Assembly: GCF_046105845.1 (NCBI RefSeq)
Contig: NZ_CP151004.1
Length of the DNA: 64,000 nt
From: Escherichia coli
GTDB taxonomy: Bacteria; Pseudomonadota; Gammaproteobacteria; Enterobacterales; Enterobacteriaceae
Direction: 5' to 3' (one strand)
Shown: positions 33,868 through 41,646 of the stretch, in pieces
How positions within the stretch are numbered: the first letter of the stretch is position 1
How the letters are laid out: every line of letters begins with the position of its first letter
Translations under genes and position numbers: made by a program
Notes under the pieces: model-generated
What the model was told of the DNA's origin: nothing
The model's database searches: none
The model's input: the letters and a program-made list of their open reading frames with translations, nothing else

Positions 33868-34170
33868 ATTTAATATCACCTAAAGAGAATTTGGTTAGCT
33901 CAAACTGTTGTGTGGATTTTCTGTGGTAGCGGATCCTACCACGACTCTGCAGGTTAAAAACACTGGCAGTCTGAGTGTTAATCGGTATGGATGGATTAAC
34001 ATCTGGATGGCTATTTTAGGTCAGTTCTTCACCCAATTTCCACTTTTTTTTGAATCGTGTCTCATTCTGTTAAAAACGTGGCTGGAAATTTTTCCTGACA
34101 ATGCTGGCATTCTGCGTATTTATCTTTTGCAATTTTCTGCCATTGTGGGGTATAAAACGCGGCGCGCGGC

Positions 34171-34386
34171 TTAAATAAAAAGCACACGACGTTTCTTTCG
34201 TGTTGCCACTTCCAGCCGGGTTGAAATCAGAGTTTTGGCTTGTGGGTTCGTCTTAACAGGCGGCCGTGGAGGTGATACGAAATAATGAACCGTTGTCTGC
34301 TGCTTAACCTGTCTCACCGTTCTGGTGAAGATTCGTTCCCCGCACTCTGCATCTCTGCTTTGCATACCTGCCGATGTTATACCCAT
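34171..34386 (-). CDS. Small ORF, possibly yqgC
   Basis: 71-aa ORF in the metK-speA intergenic region; no other support. Confidence 0.2.
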
Positions 34387-34521
34387 CTCGGCGCTTCTCA
34401 GGATTCAAGAGCTGGTTACAGTTACTGAGGACTGAACAAGGGCGCTCTTGTAAAAACAAGAGTTTTCTCGTGGTTTCGCCGAACTGTCACACTTACGTTC
34501 GGTTATGTGCTTAATAATGTT

Positions 34522-34653
34522 ATGAAAAAGAAACCGGTTGCGCAGTTGGAGCGTCAGCATTCACTGCTGGAAAATCCATGTGCTTATGGGTTGTTATCGC
34601 AGTTCCAGGCTGCGATAGTCGTTAACTGTTTTACACTTAATAAAATAATTTGA
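34522..34653 (+). CDS. yqgB: Small acid-stress protein YqgB in the speA leader
   Basis: 43-codon [46 protein letters not shown] ending 8 nt before the speA ATG. Confidence 0.6.
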
Positions 34654-34661
34654 GGTTCGCT

Positions 34662-36638
34662 ATGTCTGACGACATGTCTATGGGTTTGCCTTCGTCAGCG
34701 GGCGAACACGGTGTACTACGCTCCATGCAGGAGGTTGCAATGAGCTCCCAGGAAGCCAGCAAGATGCTGCGTACTTACAATATTGCCTGGTGGGGCAATA
34801 ACTACTATGACGTTAACGAGCTGGGCCACATTAGCGTGTGCCCGGACCCGGACGTCCCGGAAGCTCGCGTCGATCTCGCGCAGTTAGTGAAAACTCGTGA
34901 AGCACAGGGCCAGCGTCTGCCTGCACTGTTCTGTTTCCCACAGATCCTGCAGCATCGTTTGCGTTCTATTAACGCCGCGTTCAAACGTGCGCGGGAATCC
35001 TACGGCTATAACGGCGATTACTTCCTCGTTTATCCGATCAAAGTTAACCAGCACCGCCGCGTGATTGAGTCCCTGATTCATTCGGGCGAACCGCTAGGCC
35101 TGGAAGCCGGTTCCAAAGCGGAGTTGATGGCGGTGCTGGCACATGCTGGCATGACCCGTAGCGTCATCGTCTGCAACGGTTATAAGGACCGCGAATATAT
35201 CCGCCTGGCATTAATTGGCGAGAAGATGGGCCACAAGGTCTATCTGGTCATTGAGAAGATGTCAGAAATTGCCATTGTGCTGGATGAAGCAGAACGTCTG
35301 AATGTCGTTCCTCGTCTGGGCGTGCGTGCGCGTCTGGCTTCGCAGGGCTCCGGTAAATGGCAGTCCTCCGGCGGGGAAAAATCGAAGTTCGGCCTGGCGG
35401 CGACTCAGGTACTGCAACTGGTTGAAACCCTGCGTGAAGCCGGGCGTCTCGACAGCCTGCAACTGCTGCACTTCCACCTCGGTTCGCAGATGGCGAATAT
35501 TCGCGATATCGCGACAGGCGTTCGTGAATCCGCGCGTTTCTATGTTGAGCTGCACAAGCTGGGCGTCAATATTCAGTGCTTCGACGTCGGCGGTGGTCTG
35601 GGCGTGGACTATGAAGGCACCCGTTCGCAGTCCGACTGTTCGGTGAACTACGGCCTCAATGAATACGCCAACAACATCATCTGGGCGATTGGTGATGCGT
35701 GTGAAGAAAATGGTCTGCCACATCCGACAGTAATCACCGAGTCGGGTCGTGCGGTGACTGCACATCACACCGTGCTGGTGTCGAATATCATCGGCGTGGA
35801 ACGTAACGAATACACGGTGCCGACTGCGCCTGCAGAAGACGCACCGCGCGCCCTGCAAAGCATGTGGGAAACCTGGCAGGAGATGCACGAACCGGGAACT
35901 CGCCGTTCTCTGCGTGAGTGGTTGCATGACAGCCAGATGGATCTGCACGATATTCATATCGGCTACTCTTCCGGCACCTTTAGCCTGCAAGAACGCGCAT
36001 GGGCTGAGCAGCTTTATTTGAGCATGTGCCATGAAGTGCAAAAGCAGCTGGATCCGCAAAACCGTGCTCATCGTCCGATTATCGACGAGCTGCAGGAACG
36101 TATGGCGGACAAAATGTACGTCAACTTCTCGCTGTTCCAGTCGATGCCGGATGCGTGGGGGATCGACCAGTTGTTCCCGGTTCTGCCGCTGGAAGGGTTG
36201 GATCAAGTGCCGGAACGTCGCGCTGTGCTGCTGGATATTACCTGTGACTCTGACGGTGCTATCGACCACTATATTGATGGTGATGGTATTGCCACGACAA
36301 TGCCAATGCCGGAGTACGATCCAGAGAATCCGCCGATGCTCGGTTTCTTTATGGTCGGCGCATATCAGGAGATCCTCGGCAATATGCACAACCTGTTCGG
36401 TGATACCGAAGCGGTTGACGTGTTCGTGTTCCCTGACGGTAGCGTAGAAGTAGAACTGTCTGACGAAGGCGATACCGTGGCGGACATGCTGCAATATGTA
36501 CAGCTCGATCCGAAAACGCTGTTAACCCAGTTCCGCGATCAAGTGAAGAAAACCGATCTTGATGCTGAACTGCAACAACAGTTCCTTGAAGAGTTCGAGG
36601 CAGGTTTGTACGGTTATACCTATCTTGAAGATGAATAA
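34662..36638 (+). CDS. speA: Biosynthetic arginine decarboxylase
   Basis: 658-aa product from [18 protein letters not shown]; track ORF starts at an upstream TTG. Confidence 0.95.
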
Positions 36639-36655
36639 TTAAGATTATTCCGCTG

Positions 36656-36696
36656 GCGGGTCGATTTATTTACGTAAATCGGCCCGCTTTCTTTTT
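36656..36696 (+). terminator. Rho-independent terminator of speA
   Basis: 13-bp stem GCGGGTCGATTTA/TAAATCGGCCCGC (one G-U) followed by TTTCTTTTT. Confidence 0.7.
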
Positions 36697-36783
36697 ATAT
36701 ATTCTTAAAAATAATTTAGCTGCTTTTCTTATTAAATAATCCCCCTACAATCGCTGCATTAATTAAATACAGAGGGAACGGTT

Positions 36784-37515
36784 ATGAAAAAAGGGAAAGT
36801 ACGTAGCGCGTTGATAGCATTAGCCGTGCTGCTGGCCGGTTGTTCCAGTAATGCGCAGTATAATAGCAGTGCATCGGGCAATGTCGGCACCGCCTGGGGT
36901 GGGGATGTGCACTCATCGGTTCAGGGCGTATCTGCTGAGCGAGCCTGGCGCGATCCGGCAGAGATGATCGTTATTAGTTATTCGACTAATGTTCCTTCCG
37001 GCTATGATCGCGTTTATAGCATTCGTATTAACGAACTGGAATATGCTATTCGCGATGGTAATTTTAATTCTCTACCTATTACGCGTGTTTATGATTCATC
37101 CAATAATGAACCACGCTATATTGTCCATGCCAGAGTCGGAATGAATTATCAATTATATGTCCGTAATTACAGTCGTAACACCAACTACGAGATCGTTGCT
37201 ACGGTTGATGGCCTGGATGTGCTGAACGGCAAGCAAGGTTCGCTGAATAACAACGGCTATATTGTGAATGCCGGAGATTCGTTAGCGATTAAAGGATTTC
37301 GCAAAGATAAACATACCGAAGCGGCTTTTCAGTTCGCCAACGTTGCTGATTCCTACGCAGCCAATTCGGCGCAAGGCGATGTGCGTAATACCGGGGTAAT
37401 CGGCTTTGCCGCCTTTGAATTACAAGGCTCGGCGCAAAACGCGATGCCGCCGTGCTCTGGACAAGCCTTTCCGGCAGATAACAATGGCTATGCGCCGCCA
37501 CCGTGTCGGAAATAG
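36784..37515 (+). CDS. Lipoprotein of unknown function, accessory
   Basis: 243-aa ORF; lipobox LLAGCSS; Asn/Tyr/Ser-rich mature domain; AT-rich (about 32% GC in a sampled 60 nt); own RBS and flanking terminators. Confidence 0.75.
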   Translation: MKKGKVRSALIALAVLLAGCSSNAQYNSSASGNVGTAWGGDVHSSVQGVSAERAWRDPAEMIVISYSTNVPSGYDRVYSIRINELEYAIRDGNFNSLPITRVYDSSNNEPRYIVHARVGMNYQLYVRNYSRNTNYEIVATVDGLDVLNGKQGSLNNNGYIVNAGDSLAIKGFRKDKHTEAAFQFANVADSYAANSAQGDVRNTGVIGFAAFELQGSAQNAMPPCSGQAFPADNNGYAPPPCRK

Positions 37516-37524
37516 CAACCTCGC

Positions 37525-37553
37525 TTGATGCCTCGTCCATTTAAGGCGATAAT
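37525..37553 (+). promoter_or_regulatory. Candidate sigma-70 promoter upstream of speB
   Basis: TTGATG, 17-nt spacer, GATAAT. Confidence 0.4.
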
Positions 37554-37580
37554 TAGCGCAAACTTGTGTTTCGCAAATCC

Positions 37581-37622
37581 AACCCTTCCTCGTCGGGCCT
37601 AACGACGCGGAAGGGTTTTTTT
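37581..37622 (+). terminator. Intrinsic-terminator-like hairpin 29 nt upstream of the speB start
   Basis: AACCCTTCC...GGAAGGGTT with inner stem CGTCG/CGACG, followed by TTTTTTT. Confidence 0.65.
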
Positions 37623-37650
37623 ATATCGACTTTGTAATAGGAGTCCATCC

Positions 37651-38571
37651 ATGAGCACCTTAGGTCATCAATACGATAACTCACTGGTTTCCAACGCCTT
37701 TGGTTTTTTACGCCTGCCGATGAACTTCCAGCCGTATGACAGCGATGCAGACTGGGTGATTACTGGCGTGCCGTTCGATATGGCCACTTCTGGTCGTGCG
37801 GGTGGTCGTCACGGTCCGGCAGCTATTCGTCAGGTTTCGACGAATCTGGCCTGGGAACACAACCGCTTCCCGTGGAATTTCGACATGCGTGAGCGTCTGA
37901 ACGTGGTGGACTGCGGCGATCTGGTATATGCCTTCGGCGATGCCCGTGAGATGAGCGAAAAACTGCAGGCACACGCCGAGAAGCTGCTGGCTGCCGGTAA
38001 GCGTATGCTCTCCTTCGGTGGTGACCACTTTGTTACGTTGCCGCTGCTGCGTGCACATGCGAAGCATTTCGGCAAAATGGCGCTGGTACACTTTGATGCC
38101 CACACCGATACCTACGCTAACGGTTGTGAATTTGACCACGGCACCATGTTCTATACCGCGCCGAAAGAAGGTCTGATCGACCCGAATCATTCCGTGCAGA
38201 TTGGTATTCGTACTGAGTTCGATAAAGACAACGGCTTTACCGTGCTGGACGCCTGCCAGGTGAACGATCGCAGCGTGGATGACGTTATCGCTCAGGTGAA
38301 ACAGATTGTAGGTGATATGCCGGTTTACCTGACTTTTGATATCGACTGCCTGGATCCTGCTTTCGCGCCGGGAACTGGTACGCCGGTGATTGGCGGCCTG
38401 ACCTCCGATCGCGCCATTAAACTGGTACGCGGCCTGAAAGATCTCAACATCGTTGGGATGGACGTAGTGGAAGTGGCTCCGGCATACGATCAGTCGGAAA
38501 TCACCGCTCTGGCTGCGGCGACGCTGGCGCTGGAGATGCTGTATATCCAGGCGGCGAAAAAGGGCGAGTAA
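37651..38571 (+). CDS. speB: Agmatinase
   Basis: 306-aa ORF; Mn-binding His/Asp motifs (GGDHF, DAHTD, DIDCLDP). Confidence 0.95.
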
Positions 38572-38607
38572 GCGCCGGATAAGATGCGTTATGCGTCAAA
38601 TCCGGCG
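38572..38607. repeat. REP-like palindromic unit between convergent speB and loiP
   Basis: GCGCCGGATAAGATGCGTTATGCGTCAAATCCGGCG; ends CGCCGGAT/ATCCGGCG are complementary. Confidence 0.5.
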
Positions 38608-38618
38608 TAATAAAATGC

Positions 38619-39377
38619 TTACTTAATTCCATCCGCGCTCATACGATCGCGAATATGCTGGGCGCGTTCGGCGGATGCAGGATGGTCGTCAAACATTGAG
38701 CTTTGGCGGCCTTCTTCCAGTTTCGCCAGTTTTTCAAAGCTGGTGGCAAGACCTGCCGGGCTGATGCCGCGTTGACGCAGAAGATCGTAAGAATAATCAT
38801 CGGCTTCTGCTTCCTGGCGCTGGGAGAATTGCGAATTAACTAATTTCTCGCCCAGATCACCGAGTTGTGATTGAGATAAACTGCCGACAATCCCGCCCGC
38901 AGAGGCCGCAGCTACTCGCACGGCATTTGTACCAAGTGCCACCTGCATCCCTTTTTTCACATGGCCTAACGCCACGTGCCCCATTTCGTGACCGATCACC
39001 GCTTCGACTTCGTTATCCGTCATCATATCCATCAGCCCGCTATAGACGCGGATACAGCCGTTAGCCATTGCAAAGGCGTTCACATCCTTCGCCATATACA
39101 CTTTGTAATTCACCGGCTGACCGTTGATATTGTTGCCTAGCGCATTGGCAATAGTTGTCAGACGTTTAGCGTATTCGCTATTGGCTGGCGCAATCGTCGC
39201 CTTGCTGTCCATCTCCTGACATGCCTGATCGCTCAGGGTTTTCACCTGCGCATCACTCAAACTGTAAGCCTGAAAAGCTTCCGCTCCTGATGAGAGCAGT
39301 CCGTTGGAGTCCATATTCTGGCAACCGGTCAGTACCGTTGCCACGCTCATTGCTACCAATAAGGCGCGAATTTTCAT
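38619..39377 (-). CDS. loiP: Outer-membrane M48 metalloprotease LoiP (YggG)
   Basis: 252-aa product from MKIRALLVAMS; lipobox LTGCQ; HEMGH zinc motif. Confidence 0.92.
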   Translation of the reverse strand: MKIRALLVAMSVATVLTGCQNMDSNGLLSSGAEAFQAYSLSDAQVKTLSDQACQEMDSKATIAPANSEYAKRLTTIANALGNNINGQPVNYKVYMAKDVNAFAMANGCIRVYSGLMDMMTDNEVEAVIGHEMGHVALGHVKKGMQVALGTNAVRVAAASAGGIVGSLSQSQLGDLGEKLVNSQFSQRQEAEADDYSYDLLRQRGISPAGLATSFEKLAKLEEGRQSSMFDDHPASAERAQHIRDRMSADGIK

Positions 39378-39654
39378 GTTTTCTCTTCCGCACAAGGTCA
39401 GGATTATTCTAAAAATGCGCCGTTTGCAGGTGAATCGACGCTCAGTCTCAGTATAAGGAAAAGCGCAGCGGACGGGCGAGCAGATTGCGCAACATGCGAG
39501 CATGATCCAGAGATTTCTGAAGCGGCAAAAGGATGTTCCATGTACATGACGCGCGGCTTGCGGTAAATTGTTGGCAAATTTTCCGGCGTAGCCCAAAACG
39601 CGCTGTCGTCAAGTCGTTAAGGGCGTGCCCTTCATCATCCGATCTGGAGTCAAA

Positions 39655-41646
39655 ATGTCCTCACGTAAAGAGCTTGCCAATGCTATTCGTGCGCTGAGCA
39701 TGGACGCAGTACAGAAAGCCAAATCCGGTCACCCGGGTGCCCCTATGGGGATGGCTGACATTGCCGAAGTCCTGTGGCGTGATTTCCTGAAACACAACCC
39801 GCAGAATCCGTCCTGGGCTGACCGTGACCGCTTCGTGCTGTCCAACGGCCACGGCTCCATGCTGATCTACAGCCTGCTGCACCTCACCGGTTACGATCTG
39901 CCGATGGAAGAACTGAAAAACTTCCGTCAGCTGCATTCCAAAACGCCGGGCCACCCGGAAGTGGGCTACACCGCAGGTGTGGAAACCACTACTGGTCCGC
40001 TGGGTCAGGGTATTGCCAACGCAGTCGGTATGGCGATTGCAGAAAAAACGCTGGCGGCGCAGTTTAACCGTCCGGGCCACGACATTGTCGACCACTACAC
40101 CTACGCCTTCATGGGTGACGGCTGCATGATGGAAGGCATCTCCCACGAAGTTTGCTCTCTGGCGGGTACGCTGAAGCTGGGTAAACTGATTGCGTTCTAC
40201 GATGACAACGGTATCTCTATCGATGGTCACGTTGAAGGCTGGTTCACCGACGACACCGCAATGCGTTTCGAAGCTTACGGCTGGCACGTTATTCGCGGCA
40301 TCGACGGTCATGACGCGGCATCCATCAAACGCGCAGTAGAAGAAGCGCGCGCAGTGACTGACAAACCGTCCCTGCTGATGTGCAAAACCATTATCGGTTT
40401 CGGTTCACCGAACAAAGCCGGTACGCACGACTCCCACGGTGCGCCGCTGGGCGACGCTGAAATCGCCCTGACCCGCGAACAGCTGGGCTGGAAATATGCA
40501 CCGTTCGAAATCCCGTCTGAAATCTATGCTCAGTGGGATGCGAAAGAAGCAGGCCAGGCGAAAGAATCCGCATGGAACGAGAAATTCGCTGCTTACGCGA
40601 AAGCTTATCCGCAGGAAGCCGCTGAATTTACCCGCCGTATGAAAGGCGAAATGCCGTCTGACTTCGACGCCAAAGCGAAAGAGTTCATCGCTAAACTGCA
40701 GGCTAATCCGGCGAAAATCGCCAGCCGTAAAGCGTCTCAGAATGCGATTGAAGCGTTCGGTCCGCTGTTGCCGGAATTCCTCGGCGGCTCTGCTGACCTG
40801 GCACCGTCTAACCTGACCCTGTGGTCTGGTTCTAAAGCAATTAACGAAGATGCTGCGGGTAACTACATCCACTACGGTGTTCGCGAGTTCGGTATGACCG
40901 CGATTGCTAACGGTATCTCCCTGCACGGTGGTTTCCTGCCGTACACCTCCACCTTCCTGATGTTCGTGGAATACGCACGTAACGCCGTACGTATGGCTGC
41001 GCTGATGAAACAGCGTCAGGTGATGGTTTACACCCACGACTCCATCGGTCTGGGCGAAGATGGCCCGACTCACCAGCCGGTTGAGCAGGTCGCTTCACTG
41101 CGCGTGACCCCGAACATGTCCACATGGCGTCCGTGTGACCAGGTTGAATCCGCGGTCGCGTGGAAATACGGCGTTGAGCGTCAAGACGGCCCGACTGCGC
41201 TTATCCTCTCCCGTCAGAACCTGGCGCAGCAGGAGCGTACTGAAGAGCAGCTGGCAAACATCGCGCGCGGTGGTTATGTGCTGAAAGACTGTGCCGGTCA
41301 GCCGGAACTGATTTTCATCGCGACCGGTTCTGAAGTTGAACTGGCGGTTGCTGCCTACGAAAAACTGACTGCCGAAGGCGTGAAGGCGCGCGTGGTTTCC
41401 ATGCCGTCTACCGATGCATTCGACAAGCAGGATGCGGCTTACCGTGAATCCGTACTGCCGAAAGCGGTTACTGCACGCGTTGCGGTAGAAGCGGGTATTG
41501 CTGACTACTGGTACAAGTATGTTGGCCTGAACGGCGCTATCGTCGGCATGACCACCTTTGGTGAATCTGCTCCGGCAGAGCTGCTGTTTGAAGAGTTCGG
41601 TTTCACCGTTGATAACGTTGTTGCGAAAGCCAAAGCGCTGCTGTAA
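39655..41646 (+). CDS. tktA: Transketolase 1
   Basis: 663-aa product from [20 protein letters not shown]. Confidence 0.96.

Follow-up and report, generated by a model that had tools for sequence, protein, structure and literature searches.

In Escherichia coli K-12 the mRNA of speB, the agmatinase gene, is read-through RNA whichever of its two sources it comes from: speB has a real promoter of its own, and a terminator which works in vivo stands between that promoter and the start codon. Promoter and terminator are kept together as a unit in a sample of about 20 enterobacterial genera. The parts are already present in genome-wide tables; the conserved promoter-terminator unit itself is described here from a 64,000-nt stretch of E. 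coli DNA (contig NZ_CP151004.1 of assembly GCF_046105845.1), referred to below as the window. We consider it reasonably probable that the unit is an architectural attenuator, i.e. a promoter-proximal intrinsic terminator which is partial, and whose read-through is set or modulated by a trans-acting partner via the invariant upper part of the hairpin.

Agmatinase carries out the final step of the route from arginine to putrescine. The promoter of speB was first described in 1990, repression of the gene by cAMP was reported in the literature of the 1980s and 1990s, and in work from 1992 agmatine is said to induce it. To our knowledge, no regulator of speB has been identified. The unit described here is a concrete, mutable target of 100 nt for this old question of speB regulation, and is relevant both to operon annotation and to the engineering of strains for putrescine production. 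If read-through is modulated, a hairpin-type attenuator would join speFL, mdtU-mdtJI and the speA leader among the RNA-level polyamine controls. If it is not modulated, the element would be a terminator that closes one gene while throttling the next gene's own promoter.

The speB locus and the sequences compared

The features of the window are given in Table 1, and the RefSeq annotation of near-identical genomes matches this gene order. A gap of 135 nt lies between the stop codon of the lipoprotein gene and the ATG of speB, and houses both promoter and hairpin. RefSeq labels the lipoprotein gene as a hypothetical protein, lipoprotein or membrane protein, and searches of Pfam and NCBIfam with the 243-aa product gave no match from which a name could be obtained. 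The gene is a presence/absence polymorphism, found in ~3550 of 5426 complete E. coli genomes, and K-12 is without it.

Table 1. Coordinates of the speB leader and its surroundings in the window
Feature	Position	Strand	Basis
speA	34650-36638	+	ORF
Lipoprotein ORF, 243 aa, signal peptide with LLAGC lipobox	36784-37515	+	ORF list
-35 hexamer TTGATG	37525-37530	+	Scan; TTGnnn at the aligned position in 78/81 distinct enterobacterial sequences
-10 hexamer GATAAT	37548-37553	+	Scan; inside the conserved block GGCGATAAT, 37545-37553
Predicted transcription start, A residues 7-9 nt past the -10	37560-37562	+	Inferred by homology from K-12
Terminator hairpin	37581-37617	+	Fold; 9 bp, U·C mismatch, 5 bp, 7-nt loop
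T7 run (U-tract)	37616-37622	+	Sequence; first two T pair with A37581-82
Shine-Dalgarno AGGAG of speB	37639-37643	+	Sequence; GAGG conserved in alignment
speB (agmatinase), gene served by the leader	37651-38571	+	ORF; RefSeq speB WP_000105566.1
loiP		-	Polyamine locus of E. coli
tktA		+	Polyamine locus of E. coli

The scan placed a terminator-like hairpin of 15 bp, followed by TTCTTTTTAT, at 36655-36688, 17 nt past the speA stop. In the window haplotype speA thus owns a terminator. Between the lipoprotein stop and position 37581 no terminator-like site was found in the scan. In K-12, the first hairpin 3' of speA is that of the speB leader.

The comparative sample consisted of 80 speB loci from other species, together with Salmonella, Morganella, Providencia, Edwardsiella, Sodalis, Acerihabitans and an Erwinia-like genome. 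The promoter was counted over 81 distinct sequences 5' of speB, which represent about 20 genera of enterobacteria, and pairing in the hairpin over 61 distinct sequences.

The promoter of speB

A preliminary description of the window had reported a promoter, a hairpin, a run of seven T residues and a distance of 29 nt from the end of this run to the speB ATG, and each of these proved correct to the base. The promoter, TTGATG-17-GATAAT, begins 10 nt 3' of the lipoprotein stop and matches the consensus at nine of 12 hexamer positions in the scan. Four sites of equal quality were found in 2.5 kb, against 3.1 expected, and the hexamer match by itself is at chance level. The case for a real promoter comes from comparative data and from published transcripts, not from the hexamers.

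In the alignment, TTGnnn-16/17-GATAAT is kept in 78 of the 81 distinct upstream sequences, with an invariant GATAAT in these 78 and a 17-nt spacer in 76. The commonest -35 hexamer is TTGAAC, and the TTGATG of the window is the poorest variant, seen in four of the 78. K-12-like strain 3FA, whose coordinates coincide with the MG1655 positions published for the speB locus, has the speA stop followed by cTTGAAT-17-GATAAT, and an identical hairpin 26 nt later. Over the promoter region K-12 and the window are identical at 19 of 30 positions, and the hexamer positions and the spacing to the hairpin are unchanged.

SMRT-Cappable-seq of K-12 recorded an operon of b2937 (speB) only, with its start at reverse-strand position 3083886 (Yan et al., 2018; PMC6131387, Supplementary Data 2), and long reads from this start cover speB (PMC6131387). 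The start (position 1489 of locus L001) is an A; GATAAT ends 8 nt 5' of it, and the hairpin comes 18 nt later. RegulonDB also holds a transcription unit for speB on its own; the start-site table of Kim (2012) is without a speB entry. Given the K-12 start and the retention of hexamers and spacing in 78 of 81 sequences, the promoter proposed for speB in the preliminary description is very likely to be real, and this variant would be expected to fire at 37560-37562.

It is quite unlikely that the match in the window is non-functional and that strains with the lipoprotein gene make speB by read-through from upstream only. A match of this quality at chance frequency and the poor -35 hexamer would suit such a reading, but the GATAAT and the 17-nt spacing are identical to those of the validated K-12 promoter, and Citrobacter, Kluyvera, Klebsiella spallanzanii and an Enterobacter species share a conserved, lipoprotein-linked variant of the promoter, TTGAAG...TTTAAGGCGATAAT. 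Furthermore, in a strain with an IS1 insertion upstream, the promoter-hairpin segment is all that is left before speB.

In this strain, E. coli 23CRST038 (L003 2248-3434), IS1 truncates the lipoprotein gene and parts speB from speA, and the promoter-hairpin segment of speB is intact behind it. The gene end ...PPPCRK-stop is found together with the TTGAAG variant before speB in some Citrobacter, in Kluyvera georgiana, in Klebsiella spallanzanii and in an Enterobacter species. Since the end of the lipoprotein gene and its linked promoter are shared with other genera, this looks like an old haplotype and not a recent insertion. Genomes without the lipoprotein gene, including K-12-like ones, align to the window only from ~37574 onward.

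Palindromes, imperfect or perfect, lie over the predicted start. In the window this is GCGCAAAC-TTGT-GTTTCGC (37556-37574) and the K-12 counterpart is CACAATTTATTGTG (L001 1486-1499), which is another sequence in the same place. They may serve as operators or form small hairpins at the 5' end. Judged by eye, the spacing and orientation of the half-sites spoke against a PurR or CRP box over the start.

The terminator hairpin and its transcripts in K-12

In the window the hairpin starts 27 nt past GATAAT. Its lower stem of 9 bp (AACCCTTCC/GGAAGGGTT) is separated by an internal mismatch, U37590·C37608, from an upper stem of 5 bp (CGTCG/CGACG), which carries the loop GGCCTAA (37596-37602). It has the makings of an intrinsic terminator, namely a GC-rich hairpin of 14 bp with one mismatch and a T7 run directly after it, and a simple terminator scan missed it only because of the internal mismatch. 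The free energy of the hairpin alone is -24.4 kcal/mol. Taken from 37560 up to the speB ATG, the 91-nt leader has a folding energy of -31.5 kcal/mol, compared with -18.7 ± 3.0 kcal/mol for dinucleotide shuffles (z = -4.2; none of 200 shuffles as good), and the hairpin is beyond chance.

An RNA 3' end was mapped by Term-seq of K-12 to reverse-strand position 3083827, which lies 30 nt 5' of the start codon of speB (Adams et al., 2021; PMC7815308). Read off the printed sequence, this is the sixth T of the run, equivalent to window position 37621, and by analogy the 3' end in the window is expected at ~37621. The preliminary description had named Term-seq ends at 37622 as a check on the terminator, and the K-12 homologue provides one; this 3' end on the U-tract in vivo belongs to the K-12 copy alone, the hairpin of which is identical. 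The end is seen in the M63-glucose data set only and is absent from two LB data sets (PMC7815308). It was retained in a table of 5'-UTR ends, the rule for which is a dRNA-seq start site 21-200 nt upstream (PMC7815308). The main text of that paper does not mention speB, and the end is neither discussed nor followed up there.

Between them, the start at 3083886 and the end at 3083827 bear out the proposal of the preliminary description that RNA made from the speB promoter has an intrinsic terminator at its start, although the 3' end in K-12 could stem for the most part from transcripts of speA and not from this promoter. Two longer operons, that of b2938 and b2937 (speA-speB) and that of b2939, b2938 and b2937 (yqgB-speA-speB), cross the hairpin (PMC6131387). 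The alternative offered in the description, in which the hairpin terminates the upstream gene and speB depends on read-through, thus stands as well: the hairpin is the first terminator of the upstream gene and is passed by the long reads of both operons. Since initiation at the gene's own promoter and read-through from upstream both hold, the two readings are not exclusive.

Conservation among enterobacterial genera

The consensus of the aligned upstream sequences is CTTGAAC-17-GGCGATAAT ... AAtCCCTTCC-T-CGTCG-GGyyTAA-CGACG-C-GGrGGGaTT-T(7-9), in which ~20-25 variable nt separate the -10 from the hairpin. The distance from the -10 to the hairpin core is 27-34 nt, mostly 29-30 nt (78 sequences). 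The module is carried by Escherichia, Citrobacter, Klebsiella, Raoultella, Enterobacter, Lelliottia and Leclercia, and also by Kluyvera, Atlantibacter, Trabulsiella, Pluralibacter, Cedecea and others. What stands 5' of the module, be it a speA stop, repeat elements or the lipoprotein gene, makes no difference to its presence.

Pairing in the hairpin holds in 99.2% of cells across the 61 distinct sequences, compared with only 37-60% in slid controls. One pair swaps between U-A and A-U (42 vs 19 sequences), and another runs through the series C-G, U-G and U-A. Two pairs are compensatory, with changes on both sides, and none of 500 shuffles reaches the covariation score; this evidence is limited, as nine of the 15 pairs never vary. 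The upper stem and loop positions 1, 2, 5, 6 and 7 are essentially invariant, and the U·C mismatch is present in 60 of 61 sequences. Each of the 61 has 7-9 T in a row behind the hairpin, and the free energy of the hairpin was -24 to -25 kcal/mol in each of the seven representative lineages folded.

Mean pairwise identity is 0.95 in the hairpin core, 0.72 in the 35-nt promoter, 0.64 in the leader before the hairpin, 0.65 in the leader after it, and 0.64 at the third codon positions of speB. The 3' flank of the gene, taken from these genomes as a control, is unalignable, and its hairpins and repeats differ by lineage. The invariance of the hairpin beside such a flank is thus the result of selection rather than of transfer or recent shared ancestry. 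That it was brought about by recent horizontal spread is also ruled out by the third positions of speB, which are just 64% identical among these loci.

Both promoter and hairpin are kept in Edwardsiella and in the Erwinia-like genome. In Salmonella the hairpin is kept and the conserved promoter is replaced by a different upstream sequence; at the Salmonella enterica locus (L084 1-2500), genes for an alpha/beta-hydrolase, DUF386 and Ldh_2 precede speB in place of speA. In an Enterobacter MAG (L049) the speA stop abuts the hairpin, and there is no promoter. No promoter-hairpin element was found at the Morganella, Providencia, Sodalis and Acerihabitans loci. The distance between speA and speB is 13 nt in the last two.

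Within E. coli, the segment from the hairpin to speB is single copy in 5425 of 5426 complete genomes, and BLAST placed it in a median of one place per genome and at most two. A wider regulon, or extra copies of the element, was considered and rejected, as a covariance model of the hairpin matches only itself in the 64-kb window.

A plain gene-end terminator beside an independent promoter, with a fixed fraction of transcripts lost, no regulation and no specific recognition, is a possible but on the whole doubtful account of these data. It would fit a hairpin that is the first one past the lipoprotein gene in the window and past speA in K-12, that is retained in L049 and Salmonella where the conserved promoter is missing, and that is accompanied by no switching structure or upstream ORF (see the next section). 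Against it, speA in the window already has a terminator-like hairpin of its own (36655-36688). Ordinary terminators drift, as in the 3' flank of speB, but in the speB leader the upper stem, the U·C mismatch and five of the seven bases of the loop are invariant across about 20 genera. The fixed distance of ~29-30 nt between promoter and hairpin further suggests that the two are selected as a unit.

Search for switching elements

Only 18-20 poorly conserved nt stand 5' of the hairpin in the transcript, and a single-sequence fold of the leader contains no antiterminator helix competing with it. Leader-peptide attenuation would call for a conserved ORF and an antiterminator, and the speB leader has neither. 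A candidate leader peptide, ...N-P/Q-T/S-L-P-R-R-A/V-stop, begins with TTG, GTG or ATG in Escherichia but was rejected as a conserved feature, since an in-frame ATG, GTG or TTG 3' of the transcription start is present in only 18 of 81 sequences. In the window this frame is a 12-codon ORF (37564-37602) with a TTG start, encoding LCFANPTLPRRA and ending at the UAA of the loop; its two Arg codons fall in the 5' arm of the hairpin. E. albertii and several other genera have an ATG at the same place.

The speB leader matches no curated aptamer model, the mark of a riboswitch. Rfam gave no match at E <= 1 over 34000-39700 (5.7 kb), and over 131 nt at E <= 10 it returned chance matches only, at 10-15 bits compared with thresholds of 40-86 and with no guanidine family among them. 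The PyrR family was rejected on a score of 14.6 bits against a threshold of 54. A full-text literature search for the hairpin sequence found no paper, and no discussion of the speB leader was found either.

Ligand control of the leader, which the preliminary description had raised, is a hypothesis that the sequence prompts. In its strict form the apical hairpin would be a sensor of polyamines or agmatine, or a site for an antitermination or termination-enhancing protein: it would directly bind agmatine, putrescine, spermidine or an RNA-binding protein, change termination, and so couple speB to the state of the pathway. We regard this as unlikely, whether it is put as a claim on the apical hairpin or on the attenuator as a whole. 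In its favour, the conservation of sequence exceeds the needs of pairing, induction of speB by agmatine has reportedly been seen, and guanidine riboswitches with a conserved ACGA control speB-family genes in other phyla, with an invariant ACGACG here. Set against this are the low Rfam scores, the build of the element, one simple hairpin that leaves no space for an aptamer, and the position of the ACGA in the stem and not in a loop. Were the sensor reading true, it would describe a new class of terminator-embedded switch, without a separate aptamer or antiterminator, for putrescine synthesis in the Enterobacteriaceae.

The leader could in principle also act after its release. It would then be a small regulatory RNA of ~61 nt in which a single-stranded 5' seed precedes the terminator hairpin and the U-tail is a potential binding site for Hfq or ProQ. 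The terminated leader suits this in its constant length, its ~20-nt 5' tail, its Rho-independent terminator with U7-9 and the promoter that it has to itself. The tail is, however, its least conserved part: identity between the -10 and the hairpin is 0.64, the same as at synonymous sites, so that there is no conserved seed and the leader is unlike an sRNA of the Hfq type. There is also no match to an sRNA family, and the hairpin sequence occurs in no paper of the full-text search. We consider such a role very improbable.

Proposed working of the leader

In the mechanism that we favour, that of a partial terminator with a trans-acting partner, the sigma-70 promoter (37525-37553) would start transcription near 37561, and the polymerase would pass through 18-20 unstructured nt before meeting a hairpin of -24 kcal/mol and U7. 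Part of the polymerases would release a leader RNA of ~61 nt near 37621 and the remainder would read through to give speB mRNA. The hairpin would also end transcripts that arrive out of the lipoprotein gene in the window, or out of speA in K-12, and a fraction of these would continue. The output of speB would then be (own promoter + upstream read-through) x (1 - termination efficiency). For K-12 the start, the 3' end and the read-through in this scheme are direct observations, and they are carried over to the window by homology. We infer that termination is partial rather than an on/off switch.

The read-through fraction would be set or modulated by the trans-acting partner via the CGUCG/CGACG stem, the U·C mismatch and the GGyyUAA loop. 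This mechanism is favoured since the loop and mismatch bases are invariant and unneeded for pairing, the spacing is fixed, and the unit is kept despite new neighbours. The invariance of the upper stem could, however, reflect only strong selection on terminator strength. The simplest candidates for the partner may be the end-product polyamines, which would be expected to stabilise the hairpin and so give feedback. Agmatine, the reported inducer of speB, would have to weaken the terminator, as a ligand that stabilises it would lower expression; a simple ligand-stabilised hairpin thus fails to explain induction.

Comparison with known leaders

The K-12 copy is one row among the 5'-UTR terminators found in E. 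coli by Term-seq (PMC7815308) and, like the others, has its 3' end between a start site and a start codon. The polyamine-related cases validated in that study (speA and mdtJI) are Rho-dependent and linked to uORFs, whereas the speB leader has a classical hairpin and U-tract.

As in the trp, his, thr and pyrBI leaders, polymerase leaving the promoter meets a terminator ahead of the first structural gene, and expression means read-through. The speB leader differs from these in having no conserved leader ORF (18/81), no antiterminator and only ~20 nt before the terminator. It also resembles the intercistronic partial terminators that set operon stoichiometry, as in K-12 the hairpin likewise lies between speA and speB, is read through and uncouples their levels. 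Unlike those, the speB terminator has a dedicated conserved promoter upstream of it, not downstream, and a change of upstream neighbour does not part the element from speB.

Guanidine riboswitches (ykkC, mini-ykkC and ykkC-III) are 5'-UTR cis elements of agmatinase-family genes with an ACGA/ACGR motif, and the speB hairpin has ACGACG. It is nonetheless not a member of this group: it matches none of the three models at E <= 10, and has no pseudoknot or tandem loops.

The region between the terminator and speB

No conserved structure was found between the T run and the ATG (alifold -1.6 and -0.9 kcal/mol). Sequestration of the Shine-Dalgarno sequence was considered, as a GACUUU/GGAGUC helix forms in the E. 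coli fold, and was rejected since this helix is not general across the alignment.

The loop GGyyUAA (37596-37602) is complementary to positions +10 to +16 of speB (37660-37666, UUAGGUC, codons 4-6) in 75 of 80 sequences, counting G·U as allowed; loop positions 3 and 4 vary between C and U only. In a variant of the sensor reading, the loop may pair with this stretch and control translation of the read-through mRNA. The match may be a coincidence, as double compensatory changes are absent and conservation is just as high at other early codons.

The distance from the hairpin core to the ATG is 31-75 nt and falls into two main classes, of about 33-39 and 48-52 nt. Most genera retain a short (U/C)CGAC box (37626-37630 in the window) at a distance of 10-16 nt on the 5' side of the Shine-Dalgarno sequence, within a spacer that varies in sequence as well as in length.
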